Assembly (NCBI RefSeq): GCF_016026235.1
Contig: NZ_CP065613.1
Reading direction: 5' to 3' (one strand)
DNA from: Escherichia coli
GTDB lineage: Bacteria; Pseudomonadota; Gammaproteobacteria; Enterobacterales; Enterobacteriaceae
Length of the DNA stretch: 64,000 nt
In this document: positions 13,889 through 15,589 of the stretch, one piece after another
Position numbering within the stretch: the stretch's first letter is position 1
How the letters are laid out: every line of letters begins with the position of its first letter
Made by a program: the position numbers and the translations under genes
Notes under the pieces: generated by a model
Told to the model about the DNA's origin: nothing
The model's database searches: none
Seen by the model: only the letters and a program-made list of their open reading frames with translations

Positions 13889-15076
13889 GTAAACCATTAT
13901 CATATTGGTATACCGTTGCTGTAGAACTTTCAGCCCTGCGTCAAGTGACAGTGTGTTTAGTATGAGTGGAGAATGTCGAATCACATTCTCCGCCAGTTTT
14001 AATAACGAGATGACTCGCCTGTGCTTCACTGTATTTGCCTGATATTTATGATGTATCCCTTTGTTTTCCAGGCTGAAACCGCTTAACCACATAATGATAC
14101 TGGCTAATGTTGCGATCAGACTCAATACCGTGACCCGCCCAGATGAATGACTGGCACCAAACCGTAGTCCAAATCCCCAGCGAGGATTTTTTTCATCCCT
14201 GAAATTTTGCTCAATTTGCATTCTACGGCTGTATAATTTCATTACCTGTTTTGGCGAGAACTCAGTACTGTTTGTGAAAATAAACCATGGTGATTTCCCG
14301 GCAGTACGAGCTTTAGCCGTCACCGATGGTCTGGTTGCTCTTTCCTTCGAGCGTTTAAATCTACGACCTTTAGGCTTACTTTTATAAAGATAAAAATGCC
14401 CTTCATGTTGTGCATTTTTATCTCGACCCAGCAGGCCTTCACCTAAATAAATTGCTGTCGTTGATGCTTTTGTGCCTGAGTCCGACACCTTTTCCCAGCC
14501 ATTACCAACATTGTAATAATGATTGCCCAGTACCCGGCAAATATAGGTCCAGCCACGGGAGCGGAGCTGTTGGAACCATCGCCCCTGAAAACCGGCATCT
14601 GTAATAACAATGACATCAGTCCCGGGGGAAAAGCACTCAGCAAGCGATTCCAGAAAACGCTCATGTACATCTGCATTCGCTGTCTGTGATGATGGAACGA
14701 CACAACTCATCAACGGTAAAGAACGCCCGTCACATGCCAGGCTTGCCCGCAAAAGCTGAAAACGAGAGGCATGATAAGCACTCCAGTCAATGAGTATCAC
14801 AACACGAGACATTCCCCGCGTAATCTTTTGGGTAATTCGCTGAAAAATGGTGGAAACCTCATTTTGCAAATGTCGATTCCCCAACAGTCGATCCACCCGC
14901 TTTATTTTGTTTTTAACTGATGCCGTACCGGTTAAATGACGCCCGATACTGGTAAGTGTGAGGGAAGCGCCATTTATTACAGCATTAGTTGCGTCAATCA
15001 GTGATTTTTGACGGTAAAGATGCAAAGGGGCCAGTATGTTGTTAAGGAAATTTTGGCATAATGAACGTGCAGGCAT
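13886..15076 (-). CDS. IS10-family DDE transposase, ~396 aa
   Basis: Aligns along its length with recalled IS10 transposase ([13 protein letters not shown]; ILIDWS; ITDAGF; [15 protein letters not shown] carrying the Y-x2-R-x3-E-x6-K signature); ATG at 15076 preceded by AAGGAG; track ORF extends 17 codons further to a GTG at 15127. Confidence 0.88.
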
Positions 15077-15136
15077 AGTGGTGATCTCCTTGAAATTGTT
15101 AGCACAATCAATTAGATCACATCTCACTATGCCTGT

Positions 15137-15159
15137 CTTGTTTTCTGGGGATTCCTCAG
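15137..15159. repeat. IS terminal inverted repeat (outside-end equivalent, next to transposase start)
   Basis: Reverse complement CTGAGGAATCCCCAGAAAACAAG; one mismatch versus left end removes the GATC. Confidence 0.8.
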
Positions 15160-15169
15160 GGGATATCCC
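15160..15169. repeat. target-site duplication, right copy (GGGATATCC[C])
   Basis: Identical to 13856-13865; 9 vs 10 bp cannot be resolved because of the flanking C. Confidence 0.8.
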
Positions 15170-15370
15170 TGCTGTTGTGATGCATTACGGTGTCTTCATT
15201 CAAAACGTCTTTGATTTTCTGATTGTGGCCTTTGCCATCTTTATGGCGATTAAGCTAATCAACAAACTGAATCGGAAAAAAGAAGAACCAGCAGCCGCAC
15301 CAGCACCAACTAAAGAAGAAGTATTACTGACAGAAATTCGTGATTTGCTGAAAGAGCAGAATAACCGCTC

Positions 15371-15589
15371 TTAACAAGCGCCTGAAAGCAGAAGACCAGT
15401 GGTAAAAAAGTGATTTACTTTCTTGCCACTGGCCTCCCAGTTCCCCCGATTGCCATGTTTTCCTTTTCGCATGTAACTACCTTTCCCTTTCTTATTTTTC
15501 TCTACGCGCTGTCGGAATAAGGGATCATGTAGTAATGCTTCTATCGCATTATCCTTTATCTGCCCTTTAGTATGCTGATATCGGCTCAT
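15371..15589 (-). CDS. arfA: alternative ribosome-rescue factor ArfA (YhdL), 72-aa full ORF
   Basis: [51 protein letters not shown]...; 3' end overlaps the mscL stop convergently. Confidence 0.88.

Follow-up and report, generated by a model that had tools for sequence, protein, structure and literature searches.

The closest described counterpart of the locus analysed here is the control region of IS10 (ISVsa5), a textbook antisense system. The concept of fold-back inhibition reportedly goes back to Davis, Simons and Kleckner in 1985. In IS10, RNA-IN starts at −27 and RNA-OUT at +7 relative to the transposase ATG, and the −10 element of the outward promoter pOUT occupies +15 to +20 (PMC5006887). 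A GATC overlaps the inward −10 element (TGATCAAAT), and the sense and antisense RNAs overlap by ~35 nt (PMC5006887). IS10 pOUT also reads out of the element and activates neighbouring genes, for instance otsBA (PMC2744996). For mscL, the gene interrupted at this locus, there is a separate precedent: purified halves of the protein, once brought together in vitro, reportedly form a channel again (Park et al., 2004, as summarised in PMC4786117).

In the window analysed here, a stretch of 64,000 nt from Escherichia coli, mscL is split by a copy of ISEc60, and the parts of the locus are the following.

13660–13869, + strand: mscL 5′ fragment, codons 1–69 (the TM1 half), with a TGA (13867–13869) supplied by the IS end; annotated by PGAP as a pseudogene missing its C-terminus
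13856–13865, no strand: left copy of the 10-bp target duplication GGGATATCCC
13866–15159, − strand: ISEc60, IS4 family, IS10-like group, 1294 bp
13866–13884, + strand: transposase-distal inverted repeat CTGAGGGATCCCCAGAAAA, read from the sequence, with a GATC at 13872–13875
13886–15076, − strand: transposase gene, 396 aa (DDE_Tnp_1; NF033591), with the Shine-Dalgarno sequence AAGGAG at 15091–15086
15036–15374, + strand: chimeric ORF (ORF listing and profile matches) of 41 IS residues, a junction codon and MscL residues 66–136
15141–15159, − strand: transposase-proximal inverted repeat CTGAGGAATCCCCAGAAAA, without a GATC, as in the IS10 outside end
15160–15169, no strand: right copy of the 10-bp target duplication GGGATATCCC
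15160–15374, + strand: mscL 3′ fragment, TM2 and C-terminal helix; annotated by PGAP as a pseudogene missing its N-terminus

Over its 1294 bp the element is 99.9% identical to many copies that PGAP annotates as ISEc60, and the host carries ~40 copies of it. Its 19-nt terminal inverted repeats differ by one mismatch and begin CTGA..ATCCCC, as do the ends of IS10; in both elements only the transposase-distal end holds a GATC, which in ISEc60 lies at element positions 7–10 and so matches the IS10 inside end. The transposase (ATG at 15076, stop codon at 13886–13888) matches PF01609 (E 1.8e-20) and NF033591 (360 bits, cut-off 152) and is homologous to the IS10 transposase (36% identity, E 1e-74). 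The element is a true IS10 relative, the IS4-family ISEc60. It is distinct from IS10 proper in its target: ISEc60 duplicates 10 bp, as seen in 12 full copies of its clade whose targets are GGGG..CCCC or GC-rich palindromes, whereas IS10 duplicates 9 bp, and the GGGG(A/T)nCCCC palindrome takes the place of the GCTNAGC site of IS10 (PMC2744996). Here the insertion point is the palindrome GGGGATATCCC in the periplasmic-loop codons 66–69 of mscL. A literature search on ISEc60 returned its name only and nothing on its regulation.

The disrupted gene is an ordinary insertional pseudogene, mscL::ISEc60. It is split after codon 69, and no single polypeptide of ~136 aa joins TM1, loop, TM2 and C-terminal helix; against NF001841 the fragments score 137 bits (cut-off 225). 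The 5′ fragment retains the native promoter and ribosome-binding site. Compared with other IS-disrupted pseudogenes, the locus shows the same split, target duplication, pseudogene-annotated halves and accidental junction ORF, and nothing material is different.

The region around the start of the transposase gene is of more interest. Five features lie there, those of the outward (+) strand being antisense to the transposase.

15054–15062, + strand: candidate outward promoter (pOUT equivalent), an extended −10 TGgCATAAT at a position homologous to the IS10 pOUT −10; predicted start 15069/15070
15069–15146, + strand: predicted RNA-OUT-like antisense RNA of ~70–78 nt, a hairpin plus U-rich tail, deduced from fold, covariation and motif conservation
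15070–15135, either strand: inverted repeat of 66 nt that can fold into a hairpin in the RNA of both strands, with the transposase Shine-Dalgarno sequence and AUG in the inner arm
15111–15139, − strand: candidate transposase promoter (pIN equivalent), with −35 AAGACA at 15139–15134, a 17-bp spacer and the extended −10 TGaTCTAAT at 15119–15111
15136–15146, + strand: U-rich tail TCTTGTTTTCT directly after the hairpin and within the IS, terminator-like in shape

The best explanation of the locus as a whole, to which we give a probability of roughly 0.7, is that ISEc60 splits mscL, that the chimeric ORF is incidental, and that the transposase-proximal 100 bp would hold an IS10-type control module. 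An RNA-OUT-type module, so far undescribed in ISEc60, is probable.

The hairpin carries much of this reading. It folds at −32 kcal/mol (z −4.6) on the + strand and with z −6.5 on the − strand. For the covariation analysis, the minimum-free-energy fold of the window was transferred to 45 distinct relatives (32–86% protein identity; Enterobacterales, Oceanimonas, Colwellia, Pseudoalteromonas, Legionella and an Arcobacter MAG) and tested by pair counts; it replaced RNAalifold on a MAFFT alignment, which recovered the lower stem only partly. Among these relatives 82.5% of cells pair, against 31–44% when the partner columns are slid; 18 of the 27 pairs change on both sides, and the observed values were reached in none of 500 shuffles. 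A covariance model built from the ISEc60 relatives matches IS10 at positions 1336–1418 (− strand) of locus L082 (20.6 bits, E about 0.005), the sole match with E < 1 beyond the ISEc60 hairpin itself. Rfam RNA-OUT (RF00240) falls on the same IS10 locus at 1346–1415 (− strand, 98.8 bits), so that the ISEc60-family model finds the IS10 RNA-OUT on the correct strand. In the other direction, RF00240 gave no match at E ≤ 10 in the ISEc60 region 13500–15700, with matches at chance level only (family cut-off 41 bits), and the similarity of ISEc60 to IS10 RNA-OUT is too low for detection by this model. The missing match argues against membership in the Rfam family and not against analogy, given the reciprocal model match. 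By fold, covariation and the reciprocal model, ISEc60 has what characterises RNA-OUT, a conserved stem-loop antisense to the translation-initiation region of the transposase.

The layout agrees with that of IS10 to within ~1 nt. Relative to the transposase ATG, the positions predicted in ISEc60 for the sense start, antisense start and outward −10 are −28, +6/+7 and +14 to +19, and across the two elements the outward −10 falls at +14 to +20. In both hairpins the AUG is set 3–6 nt in from the foot of the inner arm, and the sense/antisense overlap predicted for ISEc60 is likewise ~35 nt (IS10: PMC5006887). The dam site GATC at 15118–15115 overlaps the inward extended −10 TGATCTAAT, the counterpart of the IS10 arrangement (PMC5006887), and the start predicted for this promoter, ~15104, is in the hairpin loop. 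TAGATCA (TGATCTA on the sense strand) is nearly invariant among the relatives, although its stem partners vary. There are two differences of arrangement: the ISEc60 module is ~23 bp nearer the IS end, with the ATG at element position 84 as opposed to 108 in IS10, and it has a U-rich tail directly after the hairpin, a feature absent from IS10, whose RNA-OUT stops at nt 47 and lacks a U-tract.

As to the outward promoter, the sequence-only reading had proposed an equivalent of pOUT and rated its hexamers, TATGTT and CATAAT, as weak. The −35 candidate TATGTT (1/6 match to TTGACA) is indeed best disregarded, and the candidate promoter has essentially no −35; the −10 candidate CATAAT (15057–15062) is better than had been claimed, since the preceding TGg makes it an extended −10. 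This extended motif occurs 15 times in 128 kb (the window, both strands), or 1.2e-4 per base. TGnCA(T/A)AnT is conserved among the relatives; in one sub-clade of six sequences the last T of the hexamer is C (CATACC). Selection for an unstructured translation start would be an alternative cause of the A/T conservation at the codon positions of the −10. At the far side of the hairpin, which is followed inside the IS by UCUUGUUUUCU, termination is predicted at ~15140–15146, before the junction, and a U-rich tail (six or more T among the first 10 nt past the stem) is present in 39 of 45 relatives. The T-tract could also be read as a UP-like A-tract for the inward promoter. Both candidate promoters went unflagged in a consensus promoter and terminator scan, which needs at least 4/6 matches in the −35, an A as the second base of the −10 and loops of 3–8 nt. 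The scan did not call the hairpin a terminator either, because the apical part of the hairpin falls outside the loop limit. The candidate promoters and the terminator-like hairpin were examined by hand and against the relatives.

In the mechanism that we propose, the inward promoter, with its extended −10 overlapping the dam site, would start the transposase mRNA within the hairpin loop. In transcripts that begin beyond the element and run into it, such as those of the convergent arfA, the 66-nt repeat would instead lock the Shine-Dalgarno sequence and AUG in the hairpin. The outward extended −10 would start the antisense stem-loop RNA at ~15069, right at the foot of the hairpin that corresponds to the RNA-OUT stem, and this RNA, complementary to the first ~35 nt of the transposase mRNA, would repress translation in trans, a repression that would matter in a host with so many copies of the element. 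The U-rich tail would end most of the antisense RNA 14–20 bp before the IS end, and read-through of the terminator would give at most an untranslated mscL′ RNA. The ORF, the identity and borders of the IS, the covariation of the hairpin, and the conservation and spacing of the motifs are observed; from them we infer promoter activity, the RNA ends and repression.

The alternative that survives best is that the hairpin acts on the sense strand only: no antisense RNA would be made, the hairpin would occlude the Shine-Dalgarno sequence and AUG in read-through transcripts and hold the inward promoter, and the apparent outward −10 would have arisen incidentally from the conserved Val/Leu-Cys-Gln/His codons and from AT-rich early codons. 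The placing of both initiation signals in the inner arm fits this alternative, as does the contrast between a read-through transposase transcript, which folds at −44 kcal/mol, and the native mRNA from ~15105, which is unstructured (−5.4 kcal/mol, z +0.7). The conserved amino acids fix most of the TGnCA core, and the lack of an RF00240 match is also in its favour. The strand asymmetry is weak: in 31 of 45 relatives it is the antisense strand that folds more stably, the mean difference being 1.9 kcal/mol (Wilcoxon p = 0.004, for sequences that are phylogenetically related). Wobble pairs point both ways. Over the whole hairpin there are 101 G-U and 72 A-C cells; in the middle helix A-C cells prevail (35 to 15 G-U), leaning toward the sense strand, whereas the lower helix has 52 G-U against 21 A-C cells, which favours the antisense strand. 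Whatever lean there is toward the antisense strand is weak, and selection may act on the RNA of either strand.

Other observations speak against a function confined to the sense strand. The last T of the outward hexamer is the third base of transposase codon 5 (A on the transposase strand), and it is kept in 39 of 47 relatives, at 1.16 bits; the first two bases of the codon, at 0.25 and 0.47 bits, leave the amino acid free to vary. This third base stays A across six different amino acids, and the codons so used (CGA, TCA, ACA, GTA) are uncommon ones in E. coli. Third positions nearby show no such constraint: away from motif and stem they reach 0.01–0.42 bits at amino acids for which any of the four bases will serve, and as much as 0.88 bits at residues with two codons, Cys and Phe among them. 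Moreover, the outward motif lies within 1 nt of the IS10 pOUT −10, the U-rich tail that so many relatives share follows the hairpin on the antisense strand, and IS10 itself uses one inverted repeat for both functions. A sense-only hairpin is an unlikely account of the region.

On the reading that ISEc60 has an IS10-type module, the IS10 package of dam-sensitive inward promoter, occlusion of the ribosome-binding site and antisense stem-loop appears to be conserved, with compensatory changes, in at least 45 distinct IS4-family elements. These range from Enterobacterales to Legionella and an Arcobacter MAG, and the current Rfam model sees IS10 only. It is rather likely, at somewhat lower confidence than the reading of the locus itself, that a broad IS4-family clade outside the reach of RF00240 may have inherited RNA-OUT-type control, here with a terminator of its own, from its ancestor. 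Literature searches on RNA-OUT in the IS4 family and, separately, on fold-back inhibition returned nothing relevant. If confirmed, the module in ISEc60 would open no new kind of biology; it would extend a textbook system to a whole clade of elements, multicopy inhibition could explain how the host tolerates its ~40 ISEc60 copies, and the alignment could seed a broader RNA family.

The chimeric ORF has a simpler origin. The sequence-only reading had described a 112-codon ATG ORF on the + strand that starts inside the IS, crosses its right inverted repeat and continues into mscL, antisense to the 5′ end of the transposase gene. All of this was recovered: the ORF listing gives 112 aa at 15036–15374, Pfam and NCBIfam place MscL on the C-terminal part, the path leads from inside the 1294-bp element over the right repeat to mscL, and ORF codons 1–14 are antisense to transposase codons 1–14. 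Two details needed correction. The IS encodes 41 residues where 43 had been counted, with codon 42 straddling the junction, and the MscL part, which does comprise TM2 and the C-terminal helix, runs over residues 66–136 and not ~67–136, because the target duplication repeats G66–P69. The ORF exists only because, of the outward frames at the IS end, one is by chance open and matches the phase of mscL. That frame is open for the last 142 nt of the element (the other two for 57 and 44 nt), and insertion in the matching phase into any + strand gene yields such an ORF, with a chance of ~1 in 3. Of 38 relatives, only 6 have the homologous frame open, and about half carry TGA in place of TGG, the Trp-7 codon of the ORF. 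The occurrence of the ORF is no more than chance would give, and it is best described as an accidental by-product of the landing of ISEc60 in mscL, neither conserved nor designed. In an exact-sequence look-up, the 112-aa product was absent from a collection of ~15 billion proteins. The ORF should be left unannotated, and mscL called a pseudogene split by ISEc60. A reading of the ORF as a conserved IS-encoded antisense gene was considered and rejected, given the few relatives with an open frame and the conservation of no start codon.

Expression of the fusion is a separate matter. In the model first put forward, a pOUT-like transcript leaves the IS and serves both as antisense regulator and as message for a ~12 kDa fusion protein. 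The part that proposes a pOUT equivalent agrees with the IS10-like layout, the extended −10 and the covarying hairpin; the part that concerns the fusion protein fared badly, and the model as a whole is very improbable. It can call on an intact ORF, on the good extended −10 at 15054–15062, and on an SD-like AAGGGG (15025–15030) 5 nt upstream of the ATG at 15036, by which a longer + strand transcript would in principle be translatable. It can also call on the capacity of IS10 pOUT to read out and turn on adjacent genes such as otsBA, so that some read-out may occur here too, and ISEc60 likewise has a candidate outward promoter near its transposase-proximal end that faces downstream host sequence (PMC2744996). 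Unlike that case, however, what lies downstream of ISEc60 is the promoterless 3′ half of a split gene with no ribosome-binding site, a terminator-like hairpin and U-tract stand between promoter and junction, and no selective benefit is evident. The start codon and ribosome-binding site of the ORF also fall outside the predicted outward transcript. Its ATG precedes that predicted start (~15069) by 33 nt and lies within the very hexamer that had been proposed as the −35, and the antisense RNA therefore could not encode the fusion protein. No other + strand promoter-like site was found between 14520 and 15054. None of the downstream in-frame starts (GTG 15078, GTG 15081, ATG 15129, ATG 15180 and ATG 15243) has a Shine-Dalgarno sequence, and three of the five are buried within the −32 kcal/mol hairpin. 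The U-rich tail after that hairpin, the rarity of an open frame and the stop at the homologous Trp codon add to the case against the model.

More doubtful still is that transcription from the native mscL promoter crosses the entire IS, on the strand opposite to the transposase gene, giving an mRNA that holds the ATG at 15036 and hence a low level of chimeric protein. The promoter and 5′ fragment are intact and AAGGGG is suitably placed upstream of that ATG, but past the TGA at 13867–13869 such a transcript would go untranslated for 1.2 kb. Long untranslated RNA should be prone to Rho termination. A terminator-like hairpin at 13966–13993 on the + strand and the second hairpin with its U-tract (15070–15146) also lie in the way, and the ORF is not conserved.

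It is scarcely credible that an N-half made from the native promoter and a C-half made by read-through IS transcription, with or without the IS leader, would form a split hypersensitive channel whose recurrence reflects selection. The break between TM1 and TM2, in the periplasmic loop, is shared with the split halves of Park et al. (2004), but those, as summarised in PMC4786117, were deliberately expressed and purified, whereas here the C-half is without a credible expression signal and would bear 41 foreign N-terminal residues. The identical mscL site is independently occupied in a second, unrelated strain, which points to an insertion hotspot rather than to function.

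ISEc60, an IS4-family element of the IS10-like kind, splits mscL in the E. coli region trkA-mscL-arfA-zntR-yhdN-rplQ-rpoA. Positions 15000-15400 match, with 100% identity, the chromosome of E. coli FDAARGOS_943 (2 differences over 6.4 kb), which carries ISEc60 at ~38 places. The copy here shares 99.9% identity with copies named ISEc60 by PGAP, found on chromosomes and plasmids of E. coli, Shigella dysenteriae and E. albertii, and its transposase is 36% identical to that of IS10 over 375 residues (E 1e-74).

Features of the interrupted locus (window coordinates)
13660-13869, + strand: mscL 5' fragment, promoter and ribosome-binding site retained, residues 1-69 (TM1 half), ending in a TGA from the IS end
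13856-13865 and 15160-15169: target duplication flanking ISEc60, 10 bp, GGGATATCCC
13866-15159: ISEc60, 1294 bp, interrupting mscL, transposase on the - strand
Ends of ISEc60: terminal inverted repeats, 19 nt each, CTGAGGGATCCCCAGAAAA and CTGAGGAATCCCCAGAAAA
Minus strand: transposase gene, sole gene of ISEc60, 396-aa DDE product (PF01609; NCBIfam IS4 model NF033591, 360 bits)
15076, - strand: transposase start ATG, with AAGGAG upstream at 15091-15086; PGAP picks the same start
15070-15135, either strand: inverted repeat or hairpin, 66 nt, within the proximal 100 bp of ISEc60
15371-15589, - strand: arfA, its transcription directed at the transposase-proximal end of ISEc60

PGAP annotates the two mscL pieces as pseudogene fragments, which makes this a commonplace pseudogene produced by insertion. 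A passage in PMC4786117 cites Park et al. (2004) as reporting that the N-terminal half of MscL alone forms non-mechanosensitive channels. The window also has a - strand rrn operon at 1-4399 (partial 23S, two tRNAs, 16S) and the alpha-operon ribosome-binding-site leader at 19379-19490, both ordinary in an E. coli context.

The hairpin at the proximal end holds the transposase Shine-Dalgarno (SD) sequence and AUG in its inner arm. Its predicted fold on the + strand reaches -32 kcal/mol (z -4.6), and the - strand is predicted to fold around the same hairpin as its core (z -6.5). Loci with transposase relatives (79, one genome per species) were fetched, and the hairpin region was aligned from 45 distinct elements whose protein identity ranged from 86% down to 32%; the sources were Yersinia, Erwinia, Buttiauxella, Photorhabdus, Xenorhabdus, Salmonella, Klebsiella, Pectobacterium, Oceanimonas, Colwellia, Pseudoalteromonas, Legionella and an Arcobacter MAG. 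When covariation was scored on the structure transferred from the window's fold, 82.5% of cells were paired, versus 31-44% with the 3' partners slid by 1-3 columns; 18 of the 27 hairpin pairs were altered on both sides, and none of 500 shuffles matched any observed pairing measure. The outer, non-coding arm changes together with the N-terminal codons, which read GTG CCT TTA in Phytobacter and ATG CTT GCA in Legionella; in the Arcobacter MAG they read ATG CAC AAG and the outer arm is altered to match.

Candidate promoters of ISEc60
Minus strand: candidate inward promoter, -35 AAGACA at 15139-15134, 17-bp spacer, TGaTCTAAT at 15119-15111, GATC at 15118-15115
15054-15062, + strand: candidate outward promoter, extended -10 TGgCATAAT

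[quoted passage not shown] Relative to the transposase ATG, RNA-IN starts at -27 in IS10 and is predicted to start at about -28 in ISEc60 (near 15104, in the hairpin loop); RNA-OUT starts at +7, with a predicted ISEc60 equivalent at +6/+7 (15069/15070, at the foot of the stem); and the pOUT -10 spans +15 to +20 (TAAAAT), compared with a predicted +14 to +19 (CATAAT). Sense and antisense RNAs overlap by 35 nt in IS10 and by a predicted ~35 nt in ISEc60. PMC5006887 is the source of these IS10 values and of the overlap between the dam site and the pIN -10. The counterpart of the candidate inward promoter in IS10 is TGATCAAAT. Both elements have GATC at positions 7-10 of the transposase-distal end and AATC in its place at the proximal end.

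The IS10 reference was the plasmid R478 copy (locus L082), in which the Rfam match to RNA-OUT spans element positions 46-115 and scores 98.8 bits. A covariance model of the 45 relatives matches this locus at L082:1336-1418 (-) with 20.6 bits and a rough E of ~0.005. The match is at the locus and on the strand of RNA-OUT and, the ISEc60 hairpin itself apart, is the only one with E < 1 in 67 kb. Conversely, the Rfam RNA-OUT model (RF00240) gave no match to ISEc60 at E <= 10. The sequence-only reading had suggested that ISEc60 might possess an equivalent of pOUT and RNA-OUT; homology, geometry, covariation and synonymous-site conservation all favor this, with the promoter and the RNA themselves being predictions. 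The ISEc60 control region is probably a new member of the IS10 pIN/pOUT/RNA-OUT kind, and such a region is probably common to a broad clade of IS4-family elements outside the coverage of RF00240. A literature search turned up no description of a control module in the ISEc60 clade; ISEc60 came up in only two papers, as a listed name.

TAGATCA is nearly invariant in the alignment though its pairing partners vary, which argues that it is kept as a sequence signal and not only as a stem. Extended -10 motifs of the TGgCATAAT type number only 15 in the window's 128 kb (both strands). Conserved codons (Val/Leu/Phe-6, Cys-7, Gln/His-8) on the opposite strand dictate most of TGnCA(T/A)AnT, and this codon-fixed portion alone says little about promoter selection. 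The last T of the hexamer tells more: it lies opposite the third base of codon 5, whose amino acid is free to vary (Gln, Lys, Arg, Ser, Val, Glu, Thr, Ala). Information content in codon 5 is 0.25 and 0.47 bits at the first two bases and 1.16 bits at the third, which is A in 39 of 47 distinct sequences. The A-ending codons include CGA, TCA, ACA and GTA, all non-preferred in E. coli. Codon 6 ends in A or T in 45/47. Variation is seen at the 'n' of TGn (codon 7 third base) and at the third positions of codons 3, 4, 8, 9, 12-14 and 16, and four-fold free third positions hold 0.01-0.42 bits. Such third-base conservation is the pattern expected of a -10 element on the antisense strand, with the caveats that the sequences are related by descent, that early codons are generally AT-rich, and that in six sequences of one sub-clade the final T is replaced by C.

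The + strand (antisense) hairpin is the stabler in 31 of the 45 relatives; the mean advantage is 1.9 kcal/mol. G-U versus A-C cells number 101 vs 72 overall and 52 vs 21 in the lower helix, and the middle helix is reversed (15 vs 35). These counts are compatible with, though no proof of, use of the hairpin on both strands, as in IS10, where Davis, Simons and Kleckner in 1985 reportedly described the repeat as both the RNA-OUT stem and an occluder of the ribosome-binding site in read-through transcripts. The predicted mRNA from 15105 is unstructured (-5.4 kcal/mol, z +0.7), whereas a transcript entering from outside ISEc60 has a predicted fold of -44 kcal/mol with SD and AUG paired. Read-through from arfA, which faces the proximal end, would cross the transposase gene in its sense orientation, and on this fold the occluding hairpin should matter for it.

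A 112-codon + strand frame (15036-15374), running from an ATG inside ISEc60 into the 3' half of mscL, is present exactly as described from the sequence. Its 112 codons comprise 41 that are IS-encoded, a single one spanning the junction, and those for residues 66-136 of MscL. It is no more than chance and of low interest; the conserved antisense module is of modest interest. One outward frame at the proximal end is open for the last 142 nt (the others for 57 and 44 nt), so a junction ORF arises automatically when the insertion falls in the right phase (~1 in 3). The homologous frame is stop-free in only 6 of 38 relatives, and the Trp-7 codon of the ORF, TGG at 15054-15056, reads TGA in about half, namely in all those with TGT as the overlapping codon for transposase Cys-7. 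Even the closest relatives (L004, L064) share no conserved start codon, and the exact product is absent from a collection of ~15 billion proteins. The transposase frame has no stop from its ATG up to the IS end, the first being TAA 15187-15185 in the mscL 3' fragment (-). At least eight public-database 'proteins' (P0001-P0008, 557-680 aa) are the mirror image of the 112-codon frame: in each, an N-terminal host-gene fragment (AldA, YdbC, others) is joined through a 28-residue sequence to the complete transposase of ISEc60. Such entries are probably artefacts of gene calling, but host translation running on in frame could get past the predicted hairpin block.

Hairpins and tail bearing on + strand transcripts
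13966-13993, + strand: terminator-like hairpin, 11-bp stem then CAGTTTTAAT, on the strand opposite the transposase 3' end
15136-15146, + strand: U-rich tail UCUUGUUUUCU, directly after the proximal hairpin, within the inverted repeat

Expression of the proposed MscL C-terminal fusion is not supported. From the -10 put forward with it, an RNA start at ~15069 is predicted; ATG 15036 lies 33 nt upstream of this start, and the RNA would not contain the 112-codon ORF. Of the in-frame starts inside the predicted RNA, GTG 15078, GTG 15081 and ATG 15129 lie inside the hairpin, ATG 15180 and ATG 15243 encode methionines within MscL, and none has an SD. An SD-like AAGGGG does precede ATG 15036 by 5 nt, and the only conceivable source of an mRNA carrying this ATG is read-through from the mscL promoter. 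Such read-through would have to cross 1.2 kb of untranslated antisense sequence, and in its path stands the hairpin at 13966-13993, which would stop transcripts entering ISEc60 from that promoter.

At the proximal end, 39/45 relatives have six or more T in the 10 nt that follow the stem, and mean T content there is 62% vs 29% in the hairpin body; ISEc60 has this T-rich tail and IS10 does not. Hairpin and tail together are shaped like an intrinsic terminator, which predicts that the majority of antisense transcripts end 14-20 bp before the IS/mscL junction. Alternatively, the A-tract opposite the tail could serve the inward promoter as an UP-like element. A degree of read-through is also likely, since IS10 pOUT is known to activate adjacent genes (PMC2744996).

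The unrelated strain E. coli 2023CK-01509 (L002) carries ISEc60 at the identical mscL position and orientation, differing from the window at 31/5107 flanking positions (0.6%) and 15/1294 IS positions (1.2%). The ISEc60 lineage inserts into palindromes of the form GGGG-(A/T)n-CCCC (twice GGGATATCCC, once GGGGAACCCC), with duplications of 10 bp versus 9 in IS10. The shared site and palindromic targets indicate that the mscL loop codons are a hotspot for insertion. One sub-clade of relatives (L005, L006, L025, L029-L033, L046, L050, L060, L080; ~50-53% protein identity) has an extra ~13-15 bp (GTAATGGGCGGGT) between inverted repeat and A-tract, which forms with the inverted repeat a second small GC-rich hairpin (ACCCGCCCATTAC...). 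In L065 (Dryocola boscaweniae), AATTCAACAA is tandemly triplicated in the hairpin loop and the transposase starts with GTG; this may be a decaying copy or a control-region variant.
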